Assembly (NCBI GenBank): GCA_030688545.1
Contig: JAUYHT010000008.1
Span: 1 to 32,000 of the forward strand
DNA from: Candidatus Iainarchaeum sp.
GTDB lineage: Archaea > Iainarchaeota > Iainarchaeia > Iainarchaeales > VGJJ01
Length of the DNA: 32,000 bases
Reading direction: 5' to 3'
Shown here: positions 451 through 21,523 of the stretch, piece after piece
Layout of the letters: the number at the start of each line of letters is the position of its first letter
How positions within the stretch are numbered: the first letter of the stretch is position 1
The notes under the pieces: model-generated
What the model was told of the DNA's origin: nothing
The model's input: only the letters and a program-made list of their open reading frames with translations
Database searches by the model: none
Program-made: the position numbers and the translations under genes

Positions 451-518
451 AACTTTTCTAATTCCAGGATTAGGGCATTCTACAACAGGAATGACCCTTT
501 CCTGATATTTTTCAGTTA

Positions 519-2711: not shown

Positions 2712-4488
2712 ATTTGAATATTCTCCTATAAACATGCAAAATTACTTCAGGAATTGGCCGTAGTTTCACGCGAGACTTTATTGACTTGAATTCGCTTTCT
2801 GGTACGGAATCGTCAAACGAAAACACGTAAACATTAAACTTTCCGGGAATTTTTTGAACCTCCTTTACAAAATCGCCAATTTTCTCTTCATCGAAAATAA
2901 TTCCCATGAATGTTTTGGGGCTCTTGAAAATTTTGAATCCGTCTTTTTCAAGAACTGGCGAAAAAGAGTTCTCCTTTAAACAAAGCATTTCGGTTGACTT
3001 TTCTACTATTTTACGCTTATTAGCATCAGTTGGCGAAGAATCAACAAAATCAGTTTTGAAATATTTTAGATTTCCGCCTAAGCCATTTATCTTTGAGCCC
3101 TTTAAGTTAGTATAACCTTTAATGGCTTTTTTCATCCTCGGTAAACAAACATCTGTGCAAATATTGCTCTCATTGTTAGTGCAAAGAATGAATTTTCTAT
3201 TTCCACCATCTTGTTTATTCAACTCTAAAACGGCGTGACCGGTTGTTCCAGAGCCAGCAAAAAAATCAAGAATGAGGGGGGACTTTTTTGCAGTGTTTTT
3301 CAGCAAATATTCAATCAATATCGTTGGCTTAGGGTAATTAAAAATCGCTTTGCCCCCATCTTCACCAAATATATCTCTTATTTCTCGAGTTCCATCTTGT
3401 GTGTAAAACATGTTATAGAGAACAGAGCGCATTATCTTTGTCCTTTCTTTGCCAAACGCGTTCAAGAATTGCTTGACCATCGGACGATAGTAGTAGCCAC
3501 GTTGATCCTTTTCTTTCTTGCAATTTATTTTATGCCAAACAATGGTTTTATTCTCAAATTCTTCTTTGGCCCTACTTTCACTAAATCTCCATTGATATCT
3601 CCCACCTTTTGGCCTAATCTCTTTTCCGTCAGGATCTTTTATGGGGTAATACATCGTGCGAATTGGAGTCGGAATGGACTGTTCTAAATCCTTGAGTTTA
3701 TACACCCCGCGAGAATCGTTATCTGGATTTTTGTAAGATTTTAATTCATCTTCGGTAAGTGCCTCTTCGAACCGTTGAATAAACTGAATGTTTTTAGCAT
3801 ACACCAAAACGTATTCGTGGTCTACTACAAACGCTTCTTTCTTCAGGACTTCCTCTGTCGGTTTATTTGGATTTTGCTTACCGCCGCCACCAGCCTTATT
3901 TTTCCAAATCAACATCCCGACATAGTTTTCTGCATTAAATACATCATCACACAATAGCTTAAGCTGCGCTTGCTCGGCGTCATTTATAGAAATAAACATC
4001 ACGCCATCTTTTTTGAGCAAATTTTTTGCTAATCGCAATCTTTTGCTCATGAAGGAAAGCCATTTACTATGGCGGTAGGAATCTTCATCATCAACAATTT
4101 TGTTATTGTAGATGAACTTATCGCCAGTTCCGCTATTGTATGGCGGATCAATATAGATAATATCAACCGACTCGCTATGCGTAAAATTCAGAACAGCTAA
4201 GGCATGATAGTTATCACCTTCAATCAGGACATTGCTCTCAATTGCTTGATTAGTAACAACATCATTACTGAGAATTGACTTCAAAACTGGGAATTTGTGG
4301 TTCGCGTCGGTAAAAGTTTCCTTAGTTTTTATTCCGTCCCAGTTGATGTAATAGTCAAATTTTTCTTTTATTTTATCCTGTTCCCAGACTAATCCATAGG
4401 TTTTTTGTTTCCGCAGCGCTTCAATTTCCTTTACTAAGTCTTCTCTTGTCCAACCGTTATAATCCCCATTTTTTCCACCCATACCCAT
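2698..4488 (-). CDS. mod: Type III R-M Mod subunit, beta-class N6-adenine/N4-cytosine DNA methyltransferase
   Basis: Catalytic motif IV IIYIDPPYNSG precedes the SAM-binding motif I LDFFAGSGTTGHAV (beta permutation). mod-res order with a 14-nt overlap is canonical for Type III systems. Confidence 0.85.
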   Translation of the reverse strand: MGMGGKNGDYNGWTREDLVKEIEALRKQKTYGLVWEQDKIKEKFDYYINWDGIKTKETFTDANHKFPVLKSILSNDVVTNQAIESNVLIEGDNYHALAVLNFTHSESVDIIYIDPPYNSGTGDKFIYNNKIVDDEDSYRHSKWLSFMSKRLRLAKNLLKKDGVMFISINDAEQAQLKLLCDDVFNAENYVGMLIWKNKAGGGGKQNPNKPTEEVLKKEAFVVDHEYVLVYAKNIQFIQRFEEALTEDELKSYKNPDNDSRGVYKLKDLEQSIPTPIRTMYYPIKDPDGKEIRPKGGRYQWRFSESRAKEEFENKTIVWHKINCKKEKDQRGYYYRPMVKQFLNAFGKERTKIMRSVLYNMFYTQDGTREIRDIFGEDGGKAIFNYPKPTILIEYLLKNTAKKSPLILDFFAGSGTTGHAVLELNKQDGGNRKFILCTNNESNICTDVCLPRMKKAIKGYTNLKGSKINGLGGNLKYFKTDFVDSSPTDANKRKIVEKSTEMLCLKENSFSPVLEKDGFKIFKSPKTFMGIIFDEEKIGDFVKEVQKIPGKFNVYVFSFDDSVPESEFKSIKSRVKLRPIPEVILHVYRRIFKYDYS

Positions 4489-4630
4489 AGTGCAGTATTT
4501 TCGGGTATTTTAATGATTCGAAAGAAGCCAACGTTTTGAGACGTTTACAAAAGATGACTTTATTTAGCGCAAAATTTACTCCAAAAACGATGACCAATTT
4601 ATATATACCCCACTACTAAAATCTTCTCAA

Positions 4631-5614
4631 ATGACATCAAACCTCAAAGATGACATAATGAATTGGCTAACGGACCGGGACTATAATCACAAATTACGTG
4701 GGATGAAGTTGCTGCAGGATCTGACAATAGCTGTCGTTCTCCTGATTTTATTCTTTGCAATTTTCCCATTTGCCGCTCAATTAAACCAAGACCCAGTAAT
4801 CTTCTTCAGAATTGGGGCAGTAATTTTATTGGCAATATTATTCTTTTCTCTTAAATTTTTTCATAAGTCCTACCGCAATGCAGCTTATGGATTCAAAGGA
4901 GCACCAAATTTTGTAAAGGTGTTGCTCCTAATCTTCGTGCTACTTGGGGCACTCTATCTATTCCAAAATCAAAAAATAGTTGGCGGAATATTTAATGAAA
5001 AAAACAAAGATGAATTAATTGACAAACTAAATCCAATCTATTTTTCGAATACAATAACTGCCAAGAACAACTCATCCTCATTAGTTAGTACATCAGATAG
5101 CCATCCAGGATTAGCTGAATATGTTGGTGGAACTATCAGCACAGCTCAAGAGGTACAGCAAGAGTTATTTCCACCACCCAATATCGATGAAATTGAAAAG
5201 ATAGTCTTTGAAAAAACAAACGCATTGAGGGGCAAAAAGCTCATTTGGAGCCCTAAACTGGCACAAATGGCCCGAGCGCATAGCCAGGATATGGCACAAA
5301 GAAAATACTTTGCCCACGATTCTCCCGAAGGATTGAGCCCATCTGATCGAGCCAAAAAGATTGGACTTAGTGAATATGGAATAGCAGAAAATATCGCTCA
5401 AGCACAGTACGGAAGCCTCTACTGCGGAGACAACCCCGTTATGACCGTTTCAAACGATGAAGATGTGGCCACGTGCGCAGTAAATGCATGGATAAAAAGC
5501 CCAGGCCATTACGCTAACATGATCGATCCCGAATTTGTTGAAATTGGGGTCGGAGTCGCATACGATGGAGAAGAGTTCTATCTAACTCAAAACTTTAGAG
5601 TACCTTACGACTGA
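4631..5614 (+). CDS. Multi-TM membrane protein with C-terminal CAP/SCP/PR1-like (YkwD-type) domain
   Basis: N-terminal hydrophobic helices. C-terminal AHSQDMAQRKYFAHDSPEG...ENIAQ...WIKSPGHYANMIDPEFVEIGVGVA matches the CAP-domain signature. TTTATATATA box ~28 nt upstream of the ATG suggests a leaderless transcript. Confidence 0.7.
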   Translation: MTSNLKDDIMNWLTDRDYNHKLRGMKLLQDLTIAVVLLILFFAIFPFAAQLNQDPVIFFRIGAVILLAILFFSLKFFHKSYRNAAYGFKGAPNFVKVLLLIFVLLGALYLFQNQKIVGGIFNEKNKDELIDKLNPIYFSNTITAKNNSSSLVSTSDSHPGLAEYVGGTISTAQEVQQELFPPPNIDEIEKIVFEKTNALRGKKLIWSPKLAQMARAHSQDMAQRKYFAHDSPEGLSPSDRAKKIGLSEYGIAENIAQAQYGSLYCGDNPVMTVSNDEDVATCAVNAWIKSPGHYANMIDPEFVEIGVGVAYDGEEFYLTQNFRVPYD

Positions 5615-5619
5615 ATTTA

Positions 5620-6132
5620 TCACAAAAATCCACTTCTTTTTAGCTGATCGCGCGCTGGATTCTTCGGATGATTCATAAATATATTCTCTAACTGAAAGAA
5701 AGCATTTTTTCCATTTTCAACCACTTCGCGCGCAAGCGTACGAACACGCTCATCAATTTCTTTTTGAGTCTTGTATTTATCCCACCAACTATTCTCACGA
5801 TCAAAAAGAAGATTGTACTCTCCATGAATTTCGTGGGCCATTACATTCCTATCATTTTTGAACACAATTATGCTCTCATTCAACGTATCAGGGATATCTC
5901 CTTTTTGATGAAGGAAATTCAAATGCTCTTTACCACTAACTGGCTTCCCACTTGGATGTTGTGTTTTACGCTCTCCATATAGGGCCGACATGTAGAGTAG
6001 ATTGTTGTCGATAAAAGCATCAGCGATTGCAGCAGCCTCAACAAAATAGCCTTTCTCTAATGGATCATCAATTTGATCCGAGTTTGTAGCAAGGCCATAC
6101 GCTTTTGGTGGGTGAAATATTACTTTGCGCAT
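5620..6132 (-). CDS. Hypothetical cytoplasmic protein, HEPN-like (RNVMAH = Rx4H motif)
   Basis: 170-aa helical-looking protein with no signal peptide or TM segment. FKNDRNVMAHEIHG at aa 91-104 fits the HEPN Rx4-6H motif, with a polar residue after the Arg. Last gene of a co-directional 4-gene cluster. Confidence 0.4.
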   Translation of the reverse strand: MRKVIFHPPKAYGLATNSDQIDDPLEKGYFVEAAAIADAFIDNNLLYMSALYGERKTQHPSGKPVSGKEHLNFLHQKGDIPDTLNESIIVFKNDRNVMAHEIHGEYNLLFDRENSWWDKYKTQKEIDERVRTLAREVVENGKNAFFQLENIFMNHPKNPARDQLKRSGFL

Positions 6133-6150
6133 ATGAAATACACAATCGAA

Positions 6151-6681
6151 TTATGCAGGAATTACGACATCTCTTCCAGTTGCCGGGCCGCATTCTTCGC
6201 TTGTTTGAGCATTATCTCCAGTGACAATAAACTTCACGTCGCCCCCACCCCAATAGCTTTCTTCATGCCAGTCAAATGTTTTTTCTACCGTTGAATGCGC
6301 AGTAATTGTCCCAACCGGATAAATCTTTGAAGTTCCGTAATGCCATTTTATTTCCTGACTAACCTTTTCCATATCCGTCTTGATTGTCACAACCACATTT
6401 TGTATATCTGCATCATTTGAATTTTTGAAAAGCATTTTGATTGTATAGCTGTGCTTGATTTGACCATAACCGGACTGCTCTTCTGTTCCATTTACAGAGT
6501 CTGATGGAAAAATGCATTCAAGAATTGGAAGCGATGGTTCATTTTTTGGAATAGGATTGTTATCTTCAATTTGTTGCACTGTTTGCTGGGGGGCTTGCTG
6601 AGGAATATTTTCCTGGACTGTTGAATTAACACATCCAACTGAGAGAATCACTAAAAAGAGTGCTCCCAAAAGCAATTTCAT
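6151..6681 (-). CDS. Putative lipoprotein / secreted beta-rich protein
   Basis: N-terminus MKLLLGALFLVILSVGC looks like a signal peptide with a lipobox-like Cys, followed by a Q/P-rich linker. Its start overlaps the stop of the upstream gene (6678-6681). Confidence 0.6.
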   Translation of the reverse strand: MKLLLGALFLVILSVGCVNSTVQENIPQQAPQQTVQQIEDNNPIPKNEPSLPILECIFPSDSVNGTEEQSGYGQIKHSYTIKMLFKNSNDADIQNVVVTIKTDMEKVSQEIKWHYGTSKIYPVGTITAHSTVEKTFDWHEESYWGGGDVKFIVTGDNAQTSEECGPATGRDVVIPA

Positions 6682-7871
6682 TCGGAAACACCATTGATCG
6701 CTTCTTCAAAATAGGGATATTGATATGCCCCTACGATGAACTTTGTTCCTTTAGTTCCTCGAATAAAGAATGAAGGTGTTCCTTCAACTCCTGCATCGAT
6801 TCCAACATCGTAATCGGCAGATATTACATCATCGTATTTTCTGCTTTCATAGCAGGTAGAAAACTGCCCCTGATCCAATCCCAATGATTCTGCCAAGGAG
6901 TAGAATTTTGCTTGGTTAAATGTCGGATAATTTTTGTATAAGAGGTCATGCATTTCCCAGAATTTTCCCTGTTCAGCTGCGCATTCAGCCGCATTTGCAG
7001 CTATTACTGCATTGTCATGAAAGCTCAAAGGAAAATGGGCAAATGCGAATCTTGCCTTTCCCGTGTCGATATACGTGGATTTAATTTTTGGCCAGGTATT
7101 CGAGTAAAAGTTATTGTTGAACGTATCGTCAAAATCGCCAAACTGCACAATCCACATCTGAGCATTTTCGTTCCCGATCCAATGGCCCGAGATGGATTTT
7201 ATATTCAAAACTTGGTCTTCGACAATAATTTGGTTCTCATTTGTTTCTCGCTTTTCGGTTTCAGCAATTTGCTTATCAATCGCGTTGATGATCGCATCAT
7301 ACGCATTGATGAGTGTTAAAACGCCTAATTCGGTTCGATGTTGAATTTTATCCGCTATCTCTTTAGCGGTCACAAAATTACCCCTATTCTCTTTCATCTC
7401 GGCAATATAGTTTTCCTTGTCTTCTTGAGAAAAACTAAGACTCGTATACTTTTCATTCAGAGAAATTTTTAGATCCTGTTCAATTCCGATAAAGAAGTAA
7501 TCGAGGGAGCGGTAATAGGTGTTCATGTCGGCCTTTAGCGATTGGTCATAGAAGGGGGCATTCGTTACTTTCGCTAATTGTATTTCAGCCTCCCGGAAGC
7601 CGTTTTTTACTCTTGGAAGGAGATCAAGAGCATCCGAATAGTCACCCTGCTCATACTTGCCGATTAAGCGTCCAAACTCATAATTAGCATTTTCCTCATA
7701 GGCTACCGCAGTTCCATAATCCTTAAACGATTGTAAGAGTGCCGTATTTTGAGCTTCGACATCTTTCAGATCTGAAGAAGCAGAAAAATATTGATAGGCG
7801 AAAATGGCTGCAACGATGACCAAAATTCCAATGGCTGCCAAATAGAGTACCTTTGATTCTTGACCTTTCAT
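6678..7871 (-). CDS. Membrane-anchored DsbA-family thioredoxin-fold protein lacking the CxxC active site
   Basis: Single N-terminal TM segment, then a ~200-aa helical ectodomain. The C-terminal domain matches the DsbA/Thioredoxin_4 pattern (IVQFGDF....F...TGKARFAFAHFPL..H..A..AA.AAECAAEQGKFWEMHDLLY...VEGTPSFFIRG). The position that is normally CPxC reads DDTF. Confidence 0.7.
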   Translation of the reverse strand: MKGQESKVLYLAAIGILVIVAAIFAYQYFSASSDLKDVEAQNTALLQSFKDYGTAVAYEENANYEFGRLIGKYEQGDYSDALDLLPRVKNGFREAEIQLAKVTNAPFYDQSLKADMNTYYRSLDYFFIGIEQDLKISLNEKYTSLSFSQEDKENYIAEMKENRGNFVTAKEIADKIQHRTELGVLTLINAYDAIINAIDKQIAETEKRETNENQIIVEDQVLNIKSISGHWIGNENAQMWIVQFGDFDDTFNNNFYSNTWPKIKSTYIDTGKARFAFAHFPLSFHDNAVIAANAAECAAEQGKFWEMHDLLYKNYPTFNQAKFYSLAESLGLDQGQFSTCYESRKYDDVISADYDVGIDAGVEGTPSFFIRGTKGTKFIVGAYQYPYFEEAINGVSE

Positions 7872-8278
7872 TTCTTGTCCCCCTTTACACCTATTTTATA
7901 ATCACCGGCATATTTTTTTCCAAAAAAATACATGCCTCCAATTAGAACTACTCCAATAAGACTCCAAACAAAAAAGCCGGAGAGGGCAACTAAAGCGGCC
8001 TCACCCCAGCGCTGTTGAGCACCCAGCCAATAGTTCAACTTAAACAGCAAAACAAGGGCAATGATTGAGAAGGCGAGTAAAAGGACCTTTTCAACAATCC
8101 AAAGCATGTCCGGAGAAAGCTCAATGTACCCCGAATATTTTACAAGCCCGAGCAAGACGGAGTATACAGCAAAGGCAATAATCACAGGGATGTATGTCCA
8201 AAGAAATGGATGGCTGAACCTCTCCATATCGGCCTTCGCATATGCGGGGCCTTTACCGAATAAGCTGTTCAGATTCAT
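7868..8278 (-). CDS. Hypothetical integral membrane protein (3-4 TM segments, no cysteines)
   Basis: ORF track; strongly hydrophobic segments. Its stop overlaps the start of the DsbA-like gene (ATGA at 7868-7871). Confidence 0.6.
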   Translation of the reverse strand: MNLNSLFGKGPAYAKADMERFSHPFLWTYIPVIIAFAVYSVLLGLVKYSGYIELSPDMLWIVEKVLLLAFSIIALVLLFKLNYWLGAQQRWGEAALVALSGFFVWSLIGVVLIGGMYFFGKKYAGDYKIGVKGDKK

Positions 8279-8353
8279 TTTTTGTTATCCTTCCAAAATC
8301 GTACATAATGGGCATATTTAAGGATTGGTTCTGGCCGCTAAGTCTTTACGGCG

Positions 8354-8608
8354 ATGTCGCGGGACCGATCAAAGGTATATAAAGAAATGAGCTGGAAGCA
8401 TGTTATGAGCATAGTAGAAAAGGTGGCTATCATCGTTATTGCAGGGTTGGCCTTCTGGGGCATTTCCGGCTTTGCAAAAGATTTCTTGATAGATAGTGGG
8501 TGGAAAGCATCCGATGCTTCATTTCCCGCCCTGCTAATTGCATTGGGCTTTCTAATTGTGGTTGGTGGCGGAACGCACCTTGTTCTAAATTTATTTGGAA
8601 ATAAGTGA
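8354..8608 (+). CDS. Small hypothetical membrane protein (84 aa, 2 TM segments)
   Basis: ORF track; two hydrophobic helices. Divergent from the 7868-8278 operon. Confidence 0.5.
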   Translation: MSRDRSKVYKEMSWKHVMSIVEKVAIIVIAGLAFWGISGFAKDFLIDSGWKASDASFPALLIALGFLIVVGGGTHLVLNLFGNK

Positions 8609-8633
8609 CTTTTCTGTATTCATCGAACTCAAA

Positions 8634-8757
8634 AGAGGCAGTCTTAAATCTTTAGCGCACGTAAAAGTCTATACAAAAGTCCAGAAAAGAAAACGCTCTT
8701 CAACACGAAGTTCTAATCACGGCCCCCGCTTATAACTTACAGTTGAAACGCGGTTTT
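8634..8757 (+). repeat. Structured intergenic repeat, copy A (conserved 5' module plus 68-nt imperfect hairpin at 8690-8757)
   Basis: 8634-8731 aligns with 10229-10325 at roughly 85-90% identity by eye. Hairpin arms are aaaacgctcttcaac and gttgaaacgcggtttt, with inner pairing aagtt/aactt. The loop contains ggcccccgc. Confidence 0.8.
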
Positions 8758-8829
8758 GCAGACCTGTTGAAATTTTTGATTTGTTTTCAGTATGGGAACG
8801 GTTTTATTCTTGAGGCGTTCATTTTGATT

Positions 8830-9339
8830 ATGGTTTTACTCGCTTCTTATCGTTCGCCAAAAGTACGAGTTTTAAATTCAAGTAACATTGATAAAAAGGG
8901 TATTTTTGCAATTGCGAACATTTCAGAAGGGGAAACTGTTTTTGTAAAAGCTGGACATATCGTTGATAATCAAACAGCTAAAGAATTAGAAAATAAGTTA
9001 GGAGAATACTGTCTTCAAATATCTGATAATCTAAATCTTTGCCCAACCACAAAAAAGGAAGTAAAAGAAACTGCTATCTTTGTCAACCATTCATGCGACC
9101 CCAACATTGGACCACGCGGACAAATTGTTTTCATTGCCATACGCAACATTAAAGCCGGTGAAGAACTGTGCTATGACTACGCCATGACAACAGCACGACA
9201 ATACAATCTGAAATGCGAATGTGGAACACGAGTATGTAGAAAAAAGATAACTGGAGAGGATTGGAAAATTAAATCACTCCAAAAAAGATACAAAAATCAT
9301 TTTTCAGACTTTATTCTTCAAAAAATAAAAAAGCAATAA
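8830..9339 (+). CDS. SET-domain protein lysine methyltransferase with post-SET Cys cluster
   Basis: NHSCDPN, GEELCYDY and post-SET CECGTRVCRKKI motifs. The first in-frame ATG is at 8830; the track ORF begins at a TTG at 8743, inside repeat A. Confidence 0.8.
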   Translation: MVLLASYRSPKVRVLNSSNIDKKGIFAIANISEGETVFVKAGHIVDNQTAKELENKLGEYCLQISDNLNLCPTTKKEVKETAIFVNHSCDPNIGPRGQIVFIAIRNIKAGEELCYDYAMTTARQYNLKCECGTRVCRKKITGEDWKIKSLQKRYKNHFSDFILQKIKKQ

Positions 9340-9354
9340 ACTAACGACTCACCA

Positions 9355-9465
9355 AAAAGAGTTAAATACTTTGAATAACACTTTACTTAAGTCCAGAAAG
9401 CACCGCGCTTCAACGCGGAGTTATAGGAACGGCCCCCGCATAAAGCTCTATGTTGAAACACGGTG
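9355..9465 (+). repeat. Structured intergenic repeat, copy B (more diverged; hairpin at 9401-9465)
   Basis: Shares aaaagag..ttaaat..cttt, gtccagaaa, cttcaac, ggcccccgc and gttgaaac with copies A and C. Hairpin arms are caccgcgcttcaac and gttgaaacacggtg. Confidence 0.7.
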
Positions 9466-9469
9466 GAAA

Positions 9470-10168
9470 TCATTCGAACGCTGGAAGAGAAGATAAGGGT
9501 CGGGAAGTATCCCCATAGTAATCTTCCCAATTGATCATGGCTTGCTTTAGGGTGTCCTTATTTTGCATCTCAGGAGGGATTACCAATTCAAAAGAGGCAG
9601 TGAATGGGATGTCAACTGTTTTTGAATAACTACATTCTTTTGCTGGATATTTTGTTGCGCATGAGGGTTTTTTTAGGAGATAAAAAATTTTAGTTACACG
9701 AGCTGAAAAATTTCCACTCACTACTCCATTTGAATAGTCTGAAAAAGAAATACTATTTGAAGCGAGCGTATTGGAAGAATTGGTTCGATCAATGGTGATC
9801 CGCGTTTGTGCAAAATAATCCCCATCCTTAAAAGTGGGTAATTCAATAATCAAATCCGCTACATTCAGGGATTGGTTAATTTGCTTAACTGAAAATGGGA
9901 ACATTTCTTGTGGATTCAGAATAAATGTCAAACCGCCCTTATTTTCTCCATCCGCATAGGAATAGTTTAACACCAATGTTTCATCTATTGCATTAAATGT
10001 AAAATTCGGGGCAGTATTTTGTGGAGTAAAAGAAAAATGAATTTCATTATTTGAAGGAATAGTGTTGAACAAAGAAACCGCTATACTCACTACCACAATG
10101 AACAAAACTAATGCCCCCATTTCGAAAATTCTGTTAGACACCATACTATTCTTTGGGGATAATCTCAT
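9470..10168 (-). CDS. Hypothetical N-terminally anchored or secreted protein (232 aa)
   Basis: N-terminal hydrophobic anchor GALVLFIVVVSIAVSLF followed by an N/S/T-rich ectodomain. TTTAAATA box (minus strand, 10190-10197) lies ~26 nt upstream of the ATG. Confidence 0.6.
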   Translation of the reverse strand: MRLSPKNSMVSNRIFEMGALVLFIVVVSIAVSLFNTIPSNNEIHFSFTPQNTAPNFTFNAIDETLVLNYSYADGENKGGLTFILNPQEMFPFSVKQINQSLNVADLIIELPTFKDGDYFAQTRITIDRTNSSNTLASNSISFSDYSNGVVSGNFSARVTKIFYLLKKPSCATKYPAKECSYSKTVDIPFTASFELVIPPEMQNKDTLKQAMINWEDYYGDTSRPLSSLPAFE

Positions 10169-10228
10169 GATTTTTGAACAATATGAAACTATTTAAAGGT
10201 TGGTTACGGCCGATAACAAGATGCAAAT

Positions 10229-10340
10229 AGAGGCAGTATTAAATCTTTAGCCAAAATAAAAATCTATACAAAAGTCCAGAAAAAAAACGCTCTTCAACAC
10301 GAAGTTGCAGGAAAGGCCCCCGCTTGTTTTACTATTGAAT
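10229..10340 (+). repeat. Structured intergenic repeat, copy C (5' module intact, 3' hairpin arm degraded)
   Basis: Near-identical to copy A through ggcccccgctt. The 3' box reads attgaat instead of gttgaaa, and outer pairing is weak. Confidence 0.75.
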
Positions 10341-10404
10341 GTCGACAATGCCCAAAACCCTGAGAAATTTAGTCAAGGTCGGATTCCAGGCCCTTTCAAA
10401 AGGG

Positions 10405-10530
10405 CTACGGCGTCGTGCTAAATGTATACAAGAATAGAACTAGATTAAAATAAGCCCAAACATAAGCGATTGCAACGCCAAAAATGCCAATTTGAACGAC
10501 TTGCAACAGAATCCTTTTGACACGGTTCAT
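10405..10530 (-). CDS. Possible 41-aa single-TM micro-protein (below the ORF-track cutoff)
   Basis: My translation: MNRVKRILLQVVQIGIFGVAIAYVWAYFNLVLFLYTFSTTP*. The stop codon overlaps a 6-bp hairpin, gccctt-tcaa-aagggc (10390-10405). No other support. Confidence 0.25.
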   Translation of the reverse strand: MNRVKRILLQVVQIGIFGVAIAYVWAYFNLVLFLYTFSTTP

Positions 10531-10744
10531 AGATATTTCTCCAATTGCTCCAAACTCTTTTCCACGGATACTTACTTGAAATCATTTAAGAAAAGCGATA
10601 AATCTGTGTGCTTATCTACCAGTTCTTTTGCCAATTTTTCATCCCGATTGTTTGGAATAAACCACTCATTTTATCAAATTATAATCCTTGTGGTGCAACA
10701 GACTATTTGCTATCCCAACGCTTGCAGGCAATGATTCTTTCTTT

Positions 10745-11143
10745 TCATACATTCACCTTGTACACTTTTGGAAGGGTGCCAAAGTCCGAGTCGGCCGTTA
10801 CTAATGCGGCATCGGACGCGAGTGCGGATTGGTAAATTATACTATCCACGGTACTCAATTTGTTTTTTACACACCATGTCACGGAATCAACCGCAATATC
10901 CTCATCCACCATCACTACAGCGCTATTTTCCCGCATAAAACGCATGGCTTCCCTGACGAAAGATGGGTTATTCAGTCTTCGGCTTAAAATTTTGGCTACT
11001 TCATGAAACGAAAGGGTGGATGTGAATATTTTTCCTTCTGGCGAATCGACTAATTGTCCTATCTTCTCCTGGGACTGGAGGAAGTAATCCAACCAGATAT
11101 TAGAGTCGAAAAACAATCGATTATCGGTCGCGGTCACGTTCAA
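10745..11143 (-). CDS. vapC: PIN-domain ribonuclease toxin VapC
   Basis: Acidic PIN residues in the expected order: FFDSNIW, FHEVAKIL, TVDSIIYQSA, TADSDF. Overlaps the upstream antitoxin gene by 23 nt. Confidence 0.8.
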   Translation of the reverse strand: MNVTATDNRLFFDSNIWLDYFLQSQEKIGQLVDSPEGKIFTSTLSFHEVAKILSRRLNNPSFVREAMRFMRENSAVVMVDEDIAVDSVTWCVKNKLSTVDSIIYQSALASDAALVTADSDFGTLPKVYKVNV

Positions 11144-11339
11144 CCCTCAGCTCTTTCAGTATTTCCTTCATTGAAATAGGGTTTTCCGCATCCTCAAATG
11201 CCCCATGCATGGATTTTCCCTTCTTCTGAATCAGCTTGTTGATTACCTGGTCATAGGTTTTCACGTGGTACGCCCCCTTGAGTGAGTCAAGGAACTTTTT
11301 GGTTTTCTGCTGGATTTGGATCGTTGTGGTTCCATCCAT
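11121..11339 (-). CDS. vapB: VapB-type antitoxin (putative RHH/CopG-like)
   Basis: 72 aa. N-terminus TTIQIQQKTKKFLDSLK resembles an RHH beta-strand plus helix; acidic/basic C-terminus. Overlapping position directly upstream of vapC. Confidence 0.65.
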   Translation of the reverse strand: MDGTTTIQIQQKTKKFLDSLKGAYHVKTYDQVINKLIQKKGKSMHGAFEDAENPISMKEILKELRVERDRDR

Positions 11340-11354
11340 GAAACACCACCCATG

Positions 11355-11370
11355 ACTATAGCACTATAGT
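11355..11370 (-). promoter_or_regulatory. Candidate vapBC operator/promoter: tandem ACTATAG repeats next to an AT-rich box
   Basis: actatag-c-actatag-t starts 16 nt upstream of the vapB start codon. Each unit contains the palindrome ctatag. It adjoins tatttaataat. Confidence 0.3.
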
Positions 11371-11433
11371 ATTTAATAATTGTGATGGTAAACCGCCGAG
11401 GAAGAAAGAAAAAGAACATCCCGTGCCTATTTT

Positions 11434-12081
11434 GTGCGCTCCTTTGTCCCGATCGGCTATATAAAGAATGAAAAGCACATACTGCTTGTGAAGCCTTCCA
11501 GATTATTTACCGCCATAGGGAAACTTAACACCCTCAAGCATCGCCAGCGCAGAGGATGGGTTGTCCGTGGGGTAAAAGGGGCCGAAAGCGTGGCCGATCA
11601 TGCGTGGCGGAGCGCGGTCATCGCCCACCTCATCGCGCCCAAGGGATACGATCGCCAAAAAATGCTCCTCATGGCGCTCCTGCACGATACGTCCGATATT
11701 TATGGCCCTCATTATATCCCCACAGATTATATTACTAAGGAAAATAAGTTTTCGCAGGAACGCAAGAGTATGAAACGATTTGTCCAGCTCCTCCCTGGAA
11801 ACGAAGGGGAAAAGTGGCTTGGGCTGTGGGAAGAGATGGAGAACCAATCCTCCAAGGAAGCCAAATTAGTGAAGGACGCGGAGATATTGGACATGCTCTT
11901 CCAGGCGTTGGAATACCAGAAAGCAGGGAATTTCAAGAAGGACCTGACAGAGTTCTGGGCGCGAGACATTAAACGATTGACTACTCCCCCTGGAAAGAAA
12001 TTAGGTTTGGAAATCAGTCGGCAGTGGCCCAAGGCGGCGAAGAAAAGGTTTGATGCCAAAAAATACACGTACCATTATTGA
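11434..12081 (+). CDS. HD-domain phosphohydrolase (YfbR/HDDC2-like 5'-deoxynucleotidase family)
   Basis: RRGWVVRGVKGAESVADHAWRSAVIAH plus LLHDTSDIY (HD signature). The start is uncertain. A TATATAAA box at 11458-11465 lies ~27 nt before an in-frame GTG at 11488, so a leaderless start there is plausible. Confidence 0.75.
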   Translation: MRSFVPIGYIKNEKHILLVKPSRLFTAIGKLNTLKHRQRRGWVVRGVKGAESVADHAWRSAVIAHLIAPKGYDRQKMLLMALLHDTSDIYGPHYIPTDYITKENKFSQERKSMKRFVQLLPGNEGEKWLGLWEEMENQSSKEAKLVKDAEILDMLFQALEYQKAGNFKKDLTEFWARDIKRLTTPPGKKLGLEISRQWPKAAKKRFDAKKYTYHY

Positions 12082-12162
12082 TTATTAATATTTTTGATGG
12101 GTGTTTTTTACTGATTGGCTTTTTGCTACTGCTGAATGTTAACCCACATAATCTCCTTCTTA

Positions 12163-13257
12163 CTATTTTTTCAGGAACTTTTCCAAATACCACCAGAACA
12201 GAATCTTGTACGCCAGCAGGGACGCATGAACCTCGATGAGGGGCGAAAGGACATTTTTACTATTGTATTTCCCGGATGGTTTACGGAGCAAGGGGGCAAT
12301 TTCGGTGATGTCAAATCCCACGAGAATTGATTTTTGTGTCTTGCATTGCTGGAGGATGGCAAACAAAACCTCCTGCAAACTTTCCATGCGCAAACCAAGA
12401 GGGAGGGGAGTCCCCGTGCCGGGAACGAGGGGGGGATCCAGGACATCCATGTCCAGGGAGATATACACGTATTTGGTTTTGATACTTGAGAGGATCATCC
12501 CCATTTGGGACGGGGAAATGAGGCCATTCATGATCATGTTGGACGGGGAGAATAGTCCTTTTTTCGGGGCATACGTCGTGTAAAAGGCCAATGGCTGGGT
12601 GGCGCAGAAGAAAATGGTTGATTCCCATTTGTTCTCACGGATGAAATCCGCCTCCTCCGAAGAAATGTGGTCGCGAATACCAATGTGGACCATGGGAAAT
12701 CCTTTCTTGCGCGCATTATGCATCACGGAGGCATGGGAATATTCCTGCGCGTCATAGGCTTCCCGCATATCCAGGTGGGCATCGAAATGGATGATGGTCA
12801 CATTTTCAGCGCCATGCACCTCATCCAGGGCGTTCAGAACTCCATTAGTGATGGAATGGTCGCCCCCTATTACCATGAGGAGCTTCTCGTCTTTCAAAAT
12901 CTTTTTGGATATCGTTTGAACACGTTTTACCATTTCCTGGGTTATTTTTTTGATCTCCAGCCACGCCCGTTTCTTCTTGATGGCCTTGGATACGTCGCGC
13001 GGACATTCAATGATACCCGCATGATGCACTTTCACTTTTTCAGAGAAATCCGTATGAAAATAAGGGACTTCCGTCTCAATCTGGAAGGACGCATCCAGGA
13101 AAGCCTGGGGGCCCAACCAGGCTCCTTTCCCATACGTGCACGTGATATCGCACGCGACCCCCACCATCACCACCTGGGCGTCCGAATAGGTAAAATTGGA
13201 ATTGAAGTTAGCAAATGTCTTGGATGGCAACCGCTTGAGAGAGGGAGATGGAATCAT
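12163..13257 (-). CDS. speB: Agmatinase / ureohydrolase family protein
   Basis: Mn-binding motifs VIGGDHSITNG, IIHFDAHLDMRE and SLDMDVLDP. The track ORF extends to 13479 but that part overlaps the upstream gene. ATG at 13257 (MIPSPSLKRL) lies 4 nt after the upstream stop. Confidence 0.8.
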   Translation of the reverse strand: MIPSPSLKRLPSKTFANFNSNFTYSDAQVVMVGVACDITCTYGKGAWLGPQAFLDASFQIETEVPYFHTDFSEKVKVHHAGIIECPRDVSKAIKKKRAWLEIKKITQEMVKRVQTISKKILKDEKLLMVIGGDHSITNGVLNALDEVHGAENVTIIHFDAHLDMREAYDAQEYSHASVMHNARKKGFPMVHIGIRDHISSEEADFIRENKWESTIFFCATQPLAFYTTYAPKKGLFSPSNMIMNGLISPSQMGMILSSIKTKYVYISLDMDVLDPPLVPGTGTPLPLGLRMESLQEVLFAILQQCKTQKSILVGFDITEIAPLLRKPSGKYNSKNVLSPLIEVHASLLAYKILFWWYLEKFLKK

Positions 13258-13261
13258 ATCA

Positions 13262-14473
13262 TTACCGCCCCATCCACGCGTTCTTAATAAGCCCGCCCGC
13301 CGACACGGGCCTACTCTCCTTTTCAGATGGGAAAAATAAGTGGGATAGGTCCTGCGACAAAGCGGGTTGGGTGTCCGCTCGGCAAAGCAGTCTTTTCCAG
13401 ATAGGTTTGATGTGCATGAGAGCGCGCGCTCCTTCGGGAGAAGGATGGCGTTGAAGATGGGTCTGAAGACGATGATCATAGGCGGATAAAGATGCCCGAG
13501 AAAAATCCGCGCGGGAATAAGCTTCCCAAATGGTTTCCCCCGCCATCCAACTGGAGGTTAATGCATCCCCTATTCCCATCCCTGAGAATGAATGGGCGAC
13601 CCCCGCCGCATCCCCAATGAGAAGGGCCCGGTTGAACACCCGTGGACGAGAACTCCCACGCAGGGGAATAACCTGTTCCTCCCAACCAGAAGAAAGGGAG
13701 TTGGGGGAGGAAGGGTGGGTCCATTCAAATGTACTCATCCATTTCTCCATCCATTCCACCAGATCCACGCGGTGGCGATCCATCCAGACAGGTGAAACGC
13801 AGGCGCCCACCGACACCTGGCCTTTTTCCAGGGGAACCATCCAAGTATAACCAGGACCTAATTCCTCATGGAAATGGATGTCTCCTTGTTTCGATTCAGT
13901 TGGGGAAGATGAAACAATTTTTTGCACCCCCATCATGGTGTGCCAGGCTGGATTTTCGAGCCCCCCTAATGACCGCGCCACTTCTGAAAAAGCCCCATCG
14001 GCCCCCACGACCATATCGCACGTCACGGTGCGGACTTGTCTCGTGGAAAGATCGGCGAGGCGCACCTCCACTTTATCTTGGAGAACATTCACCCCGGTGA
14101 CCTGCACCGATTCCCTGAATTCACACCCTTTGGTGGCATGTTCGAAAAGGATGTTATCCACCTGCTTCCGTGGGACGGAAGCCATGGCCAAATGAGGCGT
14201 AGTCGGCCGGTGGGCCGATTCCCATTCCTTCCCTTCATGGAAGAATGCCAACCCCTCTAACGAGTGGGCTCCCTTTTCAACCACTTTATCCCACACTCCC
14301 AATCGGGATAGCACATCCATGGCCTCCGGTAAAAGAAGGGCTGCTTTCCCCGTATCGCGGGGAAAAATGGATTTGTCCACGAGGAGCACGCGCAAACCCT
14401 TATCCCCTAGAAGGCGGGCACACGCACTCCCGGATGGTCCGGCTCCGCTCACCACTACATCATAGTCCTGCAT
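13262..14473 (-). CDS. FAD-dependent oxidoreductase, geranylgeranyl reductase family
   Basis: Rossmann motif YDVVVSGAGPSGSACARLLGDKGLRVLLVDK and downstream LIGDAAG. ATG at 14473 (MQDYDVVV) is preceded ~27 nt upstream by TTTATACA on the coding strand. Confidence 0.7.
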   Translation of the reverse strand: MQDYDVVVSGAGPSGSACARLLGDKGLRVLLVDKSIFPRDTGKAALLLPEAMDVLSRLGVWDKVVEKGAHSLEGLAFFHEGKEWESAHRPTTPHLAMASVPRKQVDNILFEHATKGCEFRESVQVTGVNVLQDKVEVRLADLSTRQVRTVTCDMVVGADGAFSEVARSLGGLENPAWHTMMGVQKIVSSSPTESKQGDIHFHEELGPGYTWMVPLEKGQVSVGACVSPVWMDRHRVDLVEWMEKWMSTFEWTHPSSPNSLSSGWEEQVIPLRGSSRPRVFNRALLIGDAAGVAHSFSGMGIGDALTSSWMAGETIWEAYSRADFSRASLSAYDHRLQTHLQRHPSPEGARALMHIKPIWKRLLCRADTQPALSQDLSHLFFPSEKESRPVSAGGLIKNAWMGR

Positions 14474-14594
14474 ATACCCCTCGACTCCCGAAAAGATGTA
14501 TAAAGGCAATGTGAGGGGACGAATGAAACTAGGCCCGGGGGAAATGGTTTATAAGCATTCTTCAGGGGGTTTGATTTAGAAATAGGTGATTCTC

Positions 14595-15317: not shown

Positions 15318-15368
15318 GGCGCATCATTTTCTTCTATTGCCAATCCACCCATTAGAACGCGTATCCCT

Positions 15369-16385: not shown

Positions 16386-16443
16386 ACCCCCAAAGCGGGC
16401 TATTGTACAAAAGTATAAATACCCCATTCGCGTCGCATCTTCC

Positions 16444-17830: not shown

Positions 17831-17835
17831 TCCGC

Positions 17836-21514: not shown

Positions 21515-21523
21515 GGTGATGGG

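Follow-up and report, generated by a model that had tools for sequence, protein, structure and literature searches.

Three direct, same-strand, non-coding repeat copies of about 125 nt each lie between single genes in a Candidatus Diapherotrites MAG, and their arrangement raises the question of whether they are recombination sites, small genes or spacers. The original prediction took them for attC sites of integron gene cassettes, either in a CALIN or in the distal part of an array, and named small RNA genes as the alternative. We followed these claims up in the 32,000-nt stretch of DNA that carries the repeats (the window).

Repeat copies and the genes between them

A profile search (nhmmer --max) located the copies at 8632-8759 (A), 9352-9467 (B) and 10227-10344 (C), with E-values from 2e-38 to 2e-31, at positions essentially equal to those first proposed and in the same orientation; it detected no further copy in the window. 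De novo repeat detection returned the same three copies as families D2-D4, and the pattern CTTCAACnCGnAGTT-N8-GGCCCCCGC has 3 exact matches against 0.00 expected. The identity of 85-90% originally estimated for A and C agrees with the 85-88% found by segment over the 5' two-thirds, and B was rightly described as more diverged with the same ordered blocks, its identity to A being 41% over the first 46 columns and 73-78% over the core. The right arm of C is only 55% identical to that of A, and GTTGAAAC.CGGT is common to A and B; by these segment identities A is a mosaic with a C-like left part and a B-like right part. Overall identity among the copies is 40-88%, and no stretch longer than ~22 nt is shared exactly. 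Conservation is clumped in blocks (three longest invariant runs of 11 + 9 + 7 nt; P = 0.003 by shuffling), and GGCCCCCGC is invariant though the adjoining 8-mer is fully diverged. The copies are non-coding, as stops break every frame in at least one of them and a 1-nt indel separates A from C, and they are always intergenic regardless of the orientation of the neighbouring genes. Homologues of the repeat were found neither in GTDB representatives, JGI metagenomes or IMG/VR nor otherwise outside this organism. Rfam gave no match in the window at gathering thresholds, including its CRISPR direct repeats, C/D and H/ACA sRNAs and tRNA, and permissive Rfam scans of the region and of the isolated copies reached only 7.9-19.5 bits (E>2).

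The copies alternate with genes in the order 84-aa ORF, A, SET-domain methyltransferase gene, B, 232-aa ORF on the opposite strand, C (Table 1). Start-to-start distances of 710 and 884 nt, together with the gene calls, bear out the description of repeats separating single short, unrelated genes at 700-900 nt spacing. Homologues of the SET protein occur widely among DPANN, Patescibacteria and further bacteria (identity <=71%), and the repeat was not found around them in the gene contexts inspected. The 232-aa ORF has no homologue but itself among 5.8 billion clusters, and its gene is preceded by a TATA box, TTTAAATA, ~25-30 nt upstream of the ATG. Copy B directly follows the stop codons of two convergent genes.

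Each copy is composed of a TATA-like TTAAAT box, an invariant AAGTCCAGAAA block and a ~60-nt imperfect hairpin whose loop carries the invariant GGCCCCCGC; ~63 nt of conserved non-palindromic sequence lie 5' of the hairpin. As a consensus match, TTAAAT(C/A) resembles the TATA boxes 29-37 nt before local start codons (TTTAAATA, TTAAATAC, TTAAATCC), and no comparable conserved box is present on the minus-strand side. The box precedes the AAGTCCAGAAA block by 33 nt in A and C and by 27 nt in B, which corrects the ~26 nt reported at first. Within the hairpin the inverted arms are 21 nt apart, and the internal loops are symmetric (3x3) without a bulged base. The longest invariant runs fall in the predicted unpaired regions (5' block and loop) and the stems vary, with 83.6% of cells paired in the three copies against 30-46% in slid controls. 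Between two and three pairs carry double-sided (compensatory) changes, a weak signal from n=3 sequences that 43 of 500 shuffles equal; it suggests that the hairpin co-evolves as one unit. A hand count of wobble pairs versus C-A mismatches revealed no strand bias.

The full hairpin (CTTCAAC...GTTGAAAC) is present in A and B only. The RNA fold of B reaches -25.1 kcal/mol (z -2.1), and that of C, whose 3' arm is degenerate (ATTGAATG) and whose 3' side is T-rich and trailer-like (TTGTTTTAC), is no better than that of shuffled sequence (z +1.4). A T4 run had been reported after the hairpin in both A and C: it does stand straight after the hairpin of A, with a T5 20 nt further on, but in C it falls at 10327-10330, within the would-be 3' arm. 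Copy B is without a T-run for ~90 nt 3' of its hairpin. On the minus strand a T-rich tract comes after the hairpin, TTTTCTTTT in A and T8 in C. Bidirectional terminators elsewhere in the genome (28938-29130) are A/T-tract palindromes, unlike the repeats.

Table 1. Positions of the repeat copies, their parts and neighbouring features in the window.
Feature	Position	Strand	Basis or remark
Low-GC variable island	1-10700		~38% GC, contains the repeats; composition profile, Pfam and PADLOC scans
Type III R-M system	519-4488
84-aa ORF	8354-8608	+
Copy A	8631-8757	+	Between 84-aa ORF and SET gene; nhmmer E 2e-38, repeat families D2-D4, fold, pair counts
A, TTAAAT box	8644-8649	+
A, AAGTCCAGAAA block	8677-8687	+
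A, hairpin	8690-8756	+
A, outer stem CGC/GCG	8694-8696/8750-8752	+
A, stem TTCAAC/GTTGAA	8699-8704/8742-8747	+
A, stem AAGTT/AACTT	8708-8712/8734-8738	+
A, tRNA-Cys 3'-end-like core AGTTCTAATCACGGCCCCCGCTTATA	8709-8734	+	In apical loop of hairpin
A, T4	8753-8756	+
30-mer CGGCCCCCGCTTATAACTTACAGTTGAAAC	8720-8749	+	Exact k-1 overlap of two independent Logan contigs, same sample (SRR13727534)
Unit E1	8758-9351
SET-domain methyltransferase gene	8830-9339	+	Sole gene of E1, between A and B; Pfam SET E 5e-16
Copy B	9352-9467	+	Most diverged; between convergent SET and 232-aa genes; nhmmer E 2e-31, fold, pattern matches
B, TTAAAT box	9362-9367	+
B, AAGTCCAGAAA block	9389-9399	+
B, hairpin	9401-9465	+	Outer stem CACCG/CGGTG
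B, stem TTCAAC/GTTGAA	9409-9414/9452-9457	+
B, AGTT-N8-GGCCCCCGC	9419-9439	+
Unit E2	9468-10226
232-aa ORFan	9470-10168	-	Sole gene of E2, between B and C; N-terminal hydrophobic segment
Copy C	10227-10344	+	Terminal, adjoins conserved backbone; nhmmer E 4e-34, segment identities, trailer comparison
C, TTAAAT box	10239-10244	+
C, AAGTCCAGAAA block	10272-10282	+
C, CTTCAAC	10292-10298	+
C, AGTT-N8-GGCCCCCGC	10303-10323	+
C, degenerate arm ATTGAATG	10334-10341	+
VapC (PIN) and antitoxin pair	10745-11339	-	Last backbone genes; Pfam PIN; synteny stops just past PIN

Comparison with integron attC sites

A covariance model of attC is the detection criterion of IntegronFinder and of HattCI+Infernal, also for archaeal integrons (PMC9668308). 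Our own model (R1), built from 9 genuine attCs of class 1 mobile integrons only, found every real attC present in 180 kb of integron DNA, at 31.7-74.6 bits, and scored held-out attCs at 68, 48.6, 45.9 and 15 bits, the last being dfrA27. Run on both strands of the window with filters off, R1 gave 0 matches at E<=10; the isolated copies scored <=2.5 bits (A) and <=3.5 bits (B). Twelve aligned genuine attCs begin with R''(7)-5 nt, and 10 of them continue as L''(8, one bulge)-loop-L'(7)-5 or 6 nt-R'(7). The hairpin of the repeat reads CTTCAAC-3 nt-AAGTT-21-nt loop-AACTT-3 nt-GTTGAAA, symmetric and without a bulge, and its pairing extends 5-9 bp outside the R-like box. In A and B, CTTCAAC and GTTGAAA fit RYYYAAC and GTTRRRY at 6 of 7 positions each, and 6 of the 7 positions are mutually complementary; C has ATTGAAT, lacking the invariant G of GTT, and the R-box-like dyad fits equally well on the minus strand. 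As originally stated, the window holds no integrase: none of its ORFs of >=90 aa encodes IntI, a Phage_integrase, a transposase or any other recombinase.

The idea of integron cassettes with species-specific attC sites, whether in a CALIN or distally in a sedentary chromosomal integron, draws on the hairpin ends that resemble RYYYAAC and GTTRRRY, on the single orientation and cassette-like 0.7-0.9 kb spacing, and on the toxin-antitoxin pair nearby. CALINs lack IntI by definition, and the lack of IntI or a tyrosine recombinase in the 32 kb is not decisive alone. Archaeal integrons do exist, mostly as attC clusters without IntI (PMC9668308). Against it stand the R1 scores, far from the 31-75 bits of genuine attCs, the symmetric 3x3 internal loop in place of the 5/6-nt spacer, the missing bulge, the pairing beyond the R-like box, the ATT instead of GTT in C and the long conserved non-palindromic sequence before the hairpin. 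An attC/CALIN identity was rejected on the R1 scores (<=3.5 bits), the wrong box spacing, the lack of a bulge and the lack of an integrase in the window, and we regard the integron reading as extremely unlikely. What stands of the earlier integron claim is the layout, single genes separated by repeats that look like recombination sites in an accessory region.

A tRNA-Cys-like core at the edge of a variable island

The core of the repeat matches the 3' end of a tRNA-Cys gene, a match that is new. ARAGORN identified a tRNA-Cys(GCA) at 5846-5916 of the relative L037, and AGTTCTAATCACGGCCCCCGCTTATA in copy A corresponds to its T-arm, acceptor 3' strand, discriminator and 6 nt of trailer, with 22/26 ungapped identity (0/2000 shuffles as good; blastn E 0.018, nhmmer E 0.047). 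The AGTT-N8-GGCCCCCGC(TT) of the repeat matches the T-arm and acceptor end, AGTT standing exactly 8 nt before GGCCCCCGC in 3/3 copies as it does in the tRNA. Apart from this DNA, the 3' end of the L037 tRNA-Cys is the sole place among 37 loci where AGTT-N8-GGCCCCCGC is found. In copies B and C the exact identity with the tRNA is limited to 10-11 nt, alone not significant, and the 8 nt within the tRNA-like stretch differ in all copies. The tRNA-Cys used for comparison belongs to a distant relative (agmatinase 55% identical) and not to this genome; it is the only tRNA in the syntenic L037 locus, and it lies in the same variable stretch and in matching orientation. The T-rich right flank of C resembles a native tRNA trailer. 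ARAGORN detected no tRNA gene in the window, and no 5' half of tRNA-Cys was found there within 3 mismatches. By these alignments the repeat core derives from the 3' end of a tRNA-Cys gene; with GGCCCCCGC invariant beside a diverged 8-mer, the core is under selection rather than a tRNA remnant in decay.

The 3' end of a tRNA gene is a classic integration target, and the surroundings of the repeats are those of a variable region. In relatives, the syntenic backbone runs Dph2-L16-GGR-arginase-(HD)-antitoxin-PIN, where L036 has arginase-HD-antitoxin-PIN and L037 has arginase-antitoxin-PIN. Synteny with L035, L036 and L037 breaks just after PIN, and the island starts exactly where it ends, with the repeats at the island edge. 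GC content is 38% in the island and 52% in the backbone. Besides the genes between the repeats, the island encodes the type III R-M system, CAP-domain and DsbA-like proteins and small membrane proteins. Copy C is situated ~400 nt past PIN in the window, and the tRNA-Cys of L037 is ~2 kb past PIN in the same relative orientation.

An additional signal came from the assembly of sample SRR13727534. Two independent Logan contigs match the window with 0 mismatches each, L005 at 6836-8749 and L006 at 8720-23307, and overlap exactly by the 30-mer CGGCCCCCGCTTATAACTTACAGTTGAAAC. The de Bruijn graph thus branches directly after the GTTGAAAC that ends at 8749, so that the right arm of A has a second sequence context in the sample. 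This second continuation is the only signal of recombination, an indirect one, that the data indicate.

Proposed serial integration and rival explanations

Tentatively, we favour the explanation that mini-elements with a single gene each integrated serially and site-specifically at a tRNA-Cys hotspot, and that the repeats are the att-like sites remaining from these events. In this scheme site-specific recombination would have added small DNA segments in succession at a hotspot linked to tRNA-Cys on the border of the variable island, each segment now holding one gene (SET in E1, the 232-aa ORFan in E2). Every insertion would leave a copy of the tRNA-derived core, flanked by the arms of the inserted element's site: a left arm TTAAAT ... 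AAGTCCAGAAA ... CTTCAAC-AAGTT and a right arm AACTT-GTTGAAAC.CGGT. The internal sites A and B would possess both arms, which together form an imperfect dyad (hairpin) around the core, and the terminal site C would have the left arm and core followed by native, T-rich, tRNA-trailer-like host DNA. The units, which encode no recombinase, would be non-autonomous: they would either be mobilised in trans or have decayed, in the manner of the cis-mobilisable elements (CIMEs) of accretion arrays. For the recombinase and an intact tRNA-Cys, a place to the left of the window, before its position 1, is predicted. The data establish the repeats, their anatomy, the tRNA-derived core, the position at a synteny break and the mismatch with attC sites; the origin of the array by recombination, the place of the crossover, the binding of a recombinase by the dyad arms and the present or past mobility of the units are inferred. 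tRNA genes are the target of most archaeal integrases, whose attB sites can lie anywhere between the anticodon loop or T-arm and the acceptor end and may reach past the gene, and tandem integrations at a single locus are known (PMC8371274); in bacteria, tandem accretion with recombinase-less CIMEs is documented (PMC5704250).

This explanation is favoured because the core copies the 3' end of tRNA-Cys in tRNA orientation, because the repeats sit at a synteny break between a 38%-GC island and a 52%-GC backbone, and because the terminal copy has the left part and core but a diverged, T-rich right flank. The mosaic structure of A fits sites assembled from arms of different related elements, and the assembly branch, as a second context of its right arm, was counted on the same side, as was the block-wise conservation (P = 0.003). 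On the other hand, the two defining components, recombinase and tRNA-Cys, are absent from the 32-kb window; the diverged 8 nt within the tRNA-like stretch would be unexpected in an identical att core; 21 nt separate the arms, against the 6-8 bp overlap of classical tyrosine-recombinase cores; and one-gene units of 0.7-0.9 kb are far below the size of known archaeal integrated elements. It also counts against integration that the compared tRNA-Cys is a distant relative's, with so few exact nucleotides kept in B and C, and that the conserved TATA-like box, at promoter distance, has no necessary role in it. Co-evolution of the two arms, to which the weak compensatory signal points, would sit better with a structured RNA, or with crossing-over outside the hairpin, than with arms from different elements. 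A free attP form was not found in IMG/VR.

A live rival, possible though rather unlikely, is that each copy is an independently transcribed sRNA gene of a paralogous family. From the TTAAAT promoter a ~55-85-nt plus-strand RNA would be made, with an A-rich single-stranded 5' block (AAGUCCAGAAA), a long imperfect hairpin and oligo-U termination, the conserved loop GGCCCCCGC having been exapted from a tRNA fragment. The alternative offered by the original prediction is strengthened by the box in 3/3 copies, kept in B despite 41% identity around it, similar to local gene TATA boxes and without a counterpart on the minus-strand side. Unpaired invariant runs, varying stems with three double-sided changes, 84% pairing against 30-46% in controls, the non-coding and always intergenic position whatever the neighbour orientation, and the T-runs after the hairpin of A all speak for it as well. 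It is weakened by inconsistent termination signals (no T-run in B, T4 inside the 3' arm and a fold z of +1.4 in C), by the 6-nt difference in TATA-to-block spacing in B, by the lack of wobble versus C-A strand bias, as for a DNA-level dyad, and by covariation that is not significant for three sequences. The searches of Rfam and of GTDB representatives, JGI metagenomes and IMG/VR yielded neither a family nor a homologue, and the interleaved unrelated genes, the synteny-break position and the tRNA-oriented 3'-end core would be left unexplained.

We consider it unlikely that the repeats are structured intergenic elements without a dedicated recombinase, whether a PeSL-like promoter and stem-loop module that spreads or shuffles neighbouring ORFans via ordinary homologous recombination, or a small selfish MITE/REP-like element with three local insertions. 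The PeSL form accounts for a promoter-like box and stem-loop around single ORFan-type genes in a hypervariable region, paralleling PeSLs of T4-type phages (PMC2839356, PMC4122927), and either form agrees with the mosaic A, the product expected of recombination between repeats, with the graph branch at a repeat and with the lineage-restricted family. Yet 40-88% identity with such short shared runs is a poor substrate for homologous recombination, per orientation only 1/3 copies could drive a gene (A towards SET on the plus strand, C towards the 232-aa gene on the minus strand), both genes have their own TATA boxes, and the real bidirectional terminators here are A/T-tract palindromes. For a MITE, the flanks inspected show neither terminal inverted repeats at the ends nor target-site duplications; the inverted repeat sits inside the element, confined to its 3' half, AGAGGCAGT at the 5' end lacks an inverted partner, and block-wise conservation (P = 0.003) argues against neutral decay of a selfish element. 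A locally duplicated, functionless terminator/promoter spacer with a coincidental tRNA likeness is very improbable. All three known copies do lie within 1.7 kb, the minus-strand hairpin is followed by its T-rich tract in A and C, and B comes after two convergent stops. But the intervening genes are unrelated, so that segmental duplication cannot explain the layout; conservation is block-wise and not uniform, with compensatory stem changes; the 26-nt tRNA match, equalled in 0/2000 shuffles, coincides exactly, and in the correct orientation, with the 3' end of the sole tRNA of the syntenic locus; and by the Logan graph the right arm of A has at least one other context.

The proposed att-like sites can be set beside known systems. 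Att repeats of tRNA-targeting archaeal tyrosine-recombinase elements of the SSV-, pTN3-, pT26-2- and SNJ2-type, which include tandem integrations at one tRNA locus, are likewise same-orientation repeats with the 3' part of a tRNA (T-arm to acceptor end and a few nt), and the border between backbone and low-GC island, the terminal repeat abutting host DNA and the dyad around the core are further likenesses to archaeal att repeats. In contrast to these, the 32 kb studied here hold no integrase or intact tRNA, the units measure 0.7-0.9 kb instead of 5-40 kb, and the repeats are ~125 nt long, of which at most ~26 nt are tRNA-derived and diverged save for AGTT and GGCCCCCGC, with arms 21 nt apart. 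CIME accretion arrays beside ICEs/IMEs of Streptococcus and other bacteria are bacterial, conjugation-linked and made of decayed multi-gene elements, whereas here the host is an archaeon, the units are single-gene and no cognate autonomous element was identified in the window. PeSLs of T4-type phages are likewise small promoter and stem-loop repeats around single ORFans in a hyperplastic region, with a conserved G/C-run motif and mosaicism by shuffling; they are near-identical copies in phage genomes, with sigma-70 promoters and a terminator-then-promoter order that serves the flanking genes, whereas the present repeats have a promoter-then-hairpin order, 40-88% identity and 1/3 copies facing a gene. 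The sRNA clusters of Listeria (LhrC1-4) and Vibrio (Qrr) share the close short non-coding units with promoter-like box, unpaired block and hairpin, but they are bacterial, have clear Rho-independent terminators and experimental transcripts and usually no interleaved protein genes; the termination signals of the Diapherotrites repeats are inconsistent. With integron cassettes and archaeal CALINs, finally, the array has in common one short gene between structured sites, one orientation, R''/R'-like hairpin ends and an accessory setting; it differs in the failed attC model, the box spacing, the absence of extrahelical bases and of IntI, the non-palindromic 5' half and the tRNA-derived core.

A further, distinctly unlikely possibility is a non-integron gene-cassette system of DPANN, in which single-gene mini-cassettes, each with a ~125-nt structured site that imitates the tRNA-Cys 3' end in its core, would be captured, stacked and exchanged beside that tRNA by a trans-acting recombinase with its gene elsewhere. 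Such a cassette system would be functionally integron-like and would have evolved independently from a tRNA-targeting integrase system, and its cassette site might also carry an outward-reading promoter.

Repeat copies and their anatomy

Searching the window with nhmmer --max returned three copies (A, B and C) of the repeat, all on one strand, and no fourth copy in the 32 kb; the composite pattern CTTCAACnCGnAGTT-N8-GGCCCCCGC was matched three times in the window versus 0.00 expected. The three same-strand copies claimed in the original prediction are thereby borne out, and its estimates of similarity agree with ours: A and C, put at ~85-90%, are 85-88% identical across the 5' two-thirds, and B is indeed more diverged, with 41% identity in the first 46 columns and 73-78% in the core. 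The order of genes described around the copies was likewise correct, with a SET gene between A and B and the gene of a 232-aa protein between B and C, and this cassette-like architecture of single genes between copies is real. Comparison of the frames in A, B and C revealed no reading frame common to the copies.

In every copy the 5'-most element is a TTAAAT(C/A) box, followed after 27-33 nt, rather than the ~26 nt predicted along with the box itself, by the invariant block AAGTCCAGAAA. Further downstream lies an imperfect hairpin, in copy A CGC-uc-TTCAAC-acg-AAGTT-(21-nt loop)-AACTT-aca-GTTGAA-ac-GCG, and within its loop every copy holds the invariant GGCCCCCGC. The TATA boxes of local genes, e.g. 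TTTAAATA, TTAAATAC and TTAAATCC, are found 29-37 nt upstream of start codons, and since the TTAAAT box of the repeat resembles them it is a credible promoter element in this organism. The proposed helices pair 83.6% of cells in the three copies, versus 30-46% with the partners slid. Both-sided changes occur at three pairs of the helices, a covariation that is only suggestive since it comes from three sequences and was equalled in 43 of 500 shuffles; in C the 3' arm is degenerate and the fold is no better than that of shuffled sequence. The invariant positions are clumped, with the three longest runs of 11, 9 and 7 nt (P = 0.003, shuffling), of which the longest falls within the unpaired 5' block and the second, of 9 nt, within the loop.

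Positions of features in the window and in two loci of relatives (L036, L037)
Feature	Position	Strand	Remark
res	519-2735		type III restriction-modification pair with mod; low-GC island
mod	2698-4488		type III restriction-modification pair with res; low-GC island
Overlap of contigs L001 and L005	6836-6857		inside the DsbA-like gene
Repeat copy A	8632-8759	+
tRNA-like stretch of copy A	8709-8734	+	AGTTCTAATCACGGCCCCCGCTTATA
Contig overlap ending at ...GTTGAAAC	8720-8749
Second GTTGAAAT	8766-8773		18 nt 3' of copy A's GTTGAAAC, then T5; copy B has GGTGGAAAT at a similar offset
Repeat copy B	9352-9467	+
Repeat copy C	10227-10344	+
GGCCCTTT/AAAGGGCT hairpin	~10383-10402		strong; 3' of the 41-aa ORF, on the strand of the ORF
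41-aa hydrophobic ORF	10405-10530	-	between the VapC (PIN) toxin gene and copy C; called in Logan contig
Divergent promoter region	11340-11433		HD-domain gene/vapB-like antitoxin
Same region in L036	5523-5609
aRF1 gene	18758-21514	+	split by an intein with LAGLIDADG homing-endonuclease and HTH_3 domains
End of contig L006	~23307
19-nt tandem repeat	23427-23464
Backbone ORF	24541-27585	-	1014 aa; no Pfam or PADLOC domain match
Palindromes	28938-29130		convergent intergenic; 3-4 copies of A/T-tract palindrome (AAACTTTTTGGAAAAAAGTTT...), then more TTTTGAAAAA motifs
tRNA-Cys(GCA), L037	5846-5916
PIN to tRNA-Cys, L037	3857-4926		graveyard of toxin-antitoxin fragments: truncated second antitoxin, MazE, 40-42-aa ORFs
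31-nt tandem duplication, L037	4726-4787		within the preceding region

Comparison with attC sites and other known elements

Archaeal integrons are documented and are defined by the canonical attC structure, detected with HattCI/Infernal and IntegronFinder (PMC9668308). As reference we used attCs of genuine cassette arrays adjoining intI1 on twelve plasmids. The R''(7)-5 nt spacing was present in 12 of 12 alignable genuine attCs and the full geometry, L''(8, one bulged base)-variable loop-L'(7)-5/6 nt-R'(7), in 10 of 12; the two others are dfrA27, whose L box is not cleanly alignable, and aac(6')-29b, which was not parsed by box. A covariance model trained on nine attCs, all of class 1 mobile integrons, detected all full-length attCs present in 180 kb of integron DNA (31.7-74.6 bits), among them sites whose 90-113-nt loops were shortened in the training set. 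It scored 68 bits on the held-out aadA16 site, 45.9 bits on the held-out aac(6')-29b and 48.6 bits on a 61-nt site in an integron-bearing locus (L030); held-out dfrA27 was the sole weak case (15 bits). Run on both strands of the window with filters off, this model, built on class 1 attCs only, gave no match at E<=10, and on the isolated copies its best scores were 2.5 and 3.5 bits.

The geometry of the repeat is also unlike that of attC. Its R-like and inner stems are split by a symmetric 3x3 internal loop where attC has a 5/6-nt spacer, it is devoid of the bulged base that attC carries in L'', its pairing extends beyond the R-like box, and ~63 conserved, non-palindromic nucleotides lie upstream. 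In addition, recombinase genes of whatever type are missing from the 32-kb window, where the original prediction had already noted the lack of an integrase. The failure of the model on the repeats fits this anatomy and the missing recombinase, and on the strength of the positively controlled model and of the geometry a canonical attC or integron is rejected; the label of integron cassettes is not supported. An R''/R'-like hairpin between short genes is insufficient to call an integron, and it is the box spacing and the bulged bases that separate attC cleanly from look-alikes.

Several other identities were rejected. No known RNA family, tRNA or tmRNA was found in the repeat, and a weak minus-strand likeness to the C/D-box RNA sR4 (10 bits, E 3.6) has mismatched boxes. 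Coding or micro-ORF functions, including minus-strand type I toxin-like peptides, were dismissed on frames that are unlike among the copies (20, 17 (frameshifted) and 8 codons). A CRISPR-like solitary repeat or leader was considered because the GTTGAAAC ending resembles a crRNA 5' handle, and was ruled out by the lack of an array, a Cas protein and an Rfam CRISPR-DR match and by the candidate "repeat" being only ~65% identical between A and B. Template and variable repeats of a DGR are refuted by the non-coding nature of the repeats and the lack of a reverse transcriptase; split-tRNA halves or a functional tRNA part by a T-stem that is unpaired in every copy and by the lack of a 5' acceptor strand or GC-rich leader; and origin-recognition boxes, K-turn and BHB motifs by spacing and motifs that do not fit.

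The tRNA-Cys-like core and the origin of the repeats

The window proteins (MDP2666916-39, locus tags Q8P05_054xx) comprise an archaeal backbone encoding aRF1 with an intein, Dph2, TruD, aIF2-alpha, GINS and PAC2. The GC content steps sharply from ~38% (1-10.7 kb) to ~52% (~11 kb and beyond). The former, low-GC stretch is an accessory island that encodes, besides the restriction-modification pair, one CAP-domain and one DsbA-like protein, small membrane proteins, the SET methyltransferase and several ORFans. Relatives keep the backbone order Dph2-L16-GGR-arginase-(HD)-antitoxin-PIN, and synteny ends just past PIN, with copy C located ~400 nt beyond PIN in the window. At locus L037 ARAGORN identified a tRNA-Cys(GCA) ~2 kb beyond PIN which, flipped to window orientation, lies on the same strand as the repeats. 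The tRNA-like stretch of copy A aligns ungapped to the T-arm, acceptor strand, discriminator and first trailer bases of this tRNA (AGTTCAACTCTCGGCCCCCGCTTTTA), with 22 of 26 positions identical to what is the tRNA of a distant relative and 0 of 2000 shuffles as good. Of this stretch B retains CGGCCCCCGC and C GGCCCCCGCTT, and AGTT stands exactly 8 nt before GGCCCCCGC in all three copies, matching the L037 tRNA; among the 37 loci compared, AGTT-N8-GGCCCCCGC occurs only in window DNA and at the 3' end of the L037 tRNA-Cys.

Same-orientation repeats that carry a tRNA 3' end and stand where a backbone borders an island of different composition are what site-specific integration classically leaves behind. 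The reading that we rank first, tentatively, is that the repeats are tRNA-Cys-derived att-like sites arising from serial insertion of single-gene mini-elements. Archaeal integrases mostly target tRNA genes, their attB sites cover various parts of the region between the anticodon loop or T-arm and the acceptor end and may run past the gene, and tandem integrations at a single archaeal locus are known (PMC8371274); bacteria accumulate, by accretion, elements that lack a recombinase and are flanked by sites of this kind (CIMEs; PMC5704250). Under serial insertion the core of the internal sites (A, B) would be flanked on either side by arms coming from the elements, and the terminal site (C) would have lost its right arm to host DNA. 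The copies agree with this prediction, since A and B share the right arm GTTGAAAC.CGGT and C retains only the left part and core of A (85-88%, versus 55% in the right arm), running on into a T-rich stretch like a native tRNA trailer. Furthermore, A is a mosaic, like C on the left and like B on the right, which also fits. The ranking rests on these arms, on the mosaic and on the tRNA-derived core at the backbone/island border. On this reading the left border of the island would be expected to bear a plus-strand tRNA-Cys(GCA) ending ...AGTT-N8-GGCCCCCGCT and, close to it, an integrase gene. Our confidence is not higher because the window shows neither a recombinase nor an intact tRNA (no tRNA gene and no tRNA-Cys 5' half), the tRNA compared is from a distant relative, 8 nt within the tRNA-like stretch differ among the copies, 21 nt separate the inverted arms, the units are of unusually small size, and a few compensatory changes tie both arms of the same chromosomal copy.

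Such arm-linking changes are easier to understand in a structured RNA, or if the crossover lay outside the hairpin. Small-RNA genes would account for the TATA-like box and the conserved unpaired blocks, and are nevertheless a less likely identity of the repeats, as they leave the interleaved unrelated genes, the synteny break and the tRNA-derived core unexplained and the termination signals are inconsistent among the copies. A search of the window for small-RNA targets found no complement of AAGTCCAGAAA and no meaningful enrichment of GGCCCCCGC-like sites after removal of the three own copies. Slightly less likely again is a PeSL-like or MITE-like structured repeat: promoter-plus-stem-loop repeats flanking ORFans have a documented origin in PeSL modules (PMC2839356, PMC4122927), but A, B and C have diverged too far to undergo homologous exchange efficiently, neither TIRs nor TSDs are present, and most of the copies do not point towards a gene. 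Plain terminators are disfavoured because the palindromes between the convergent genes, probably bidirectional oligo-T terminators, are quite unlike A, B and C. The readings are not mutually exclusive, as an attP arm can bear an outward-reading promoter.

DPANN archaea have tiny genomes and, to our knowledge, their acquisition of accessory genes is poorly understood. If the repeats are recombination sites, they would point to gene-by-gene capture at a tRNA-linked hotspot through tRNA-derived sites and not attC; cassette arrays would then have arisen a second time, by independent evolution, in a lineage with hardly any integrons on record. If they are small-RNA genes, they would form a rare multi-copy, island-borne DPANN family built on an exapted tRNA fragment.

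Distribution of the repeat, the assembly branch and neighbouring features

Scanning for the repeat pattern turned up no true copy either in GTDB genomes, one for each species (2 chance matches in bacterial CDS), or in JGI metagenomes (0 matches in one scan, 7 chance matches in another); scans of IMG/VR viral sequences gave 0 matches, and blastn against phage and plasmid records found no copy. The repeat is also absent from the contexts of the nearest SET homologues (L007-L015) and from the relatives' loci L035 and L036. Homologues of the SET gene itself occur widely across DPANN, Patescibacteria and other bacteria. The 232-aa protein is an ORFan and the nearest sampled relatives share just 55-61% identity in a core enzyme, which together with the lack of true copies in the databases searched indicates a lineage-restricted repeat family.

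Logan contigs of run SRR13727534 match the window DNA with 0 mismatches. Two of these overlap by exactly 30 nt (k-1), ending precisely at the GTTGAAAC of copy A, which implies a branch of the de Bruijn graph with at least two continuations after 8749 in that sample. Since contig L006 passes through B and C without a break, the alternative continuation does not stem from a simple deletion between A and B or between A and C, and is an indirect sign of another copy or of another occupant downstream of an A-like site. Two other contig boundaries bear no k-1 signature: the overlap of L001 with L005 is just 22 nt long, and L006 ends near the 19-nt tandem repeat and an inverted repeat.

In the backbone, the aRF1 of L035 is intein-less (416 aa). 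The divergent promoter region between the HD-domain and antitoxin genes is almost identical in the window and the distant relative L036 (CACAATTATTAAATACT[A/G]TAGTGCTATAGT) while the flanking proteins are only ~50-70% identical, and this non-coding stretch is thus strongly constrained.
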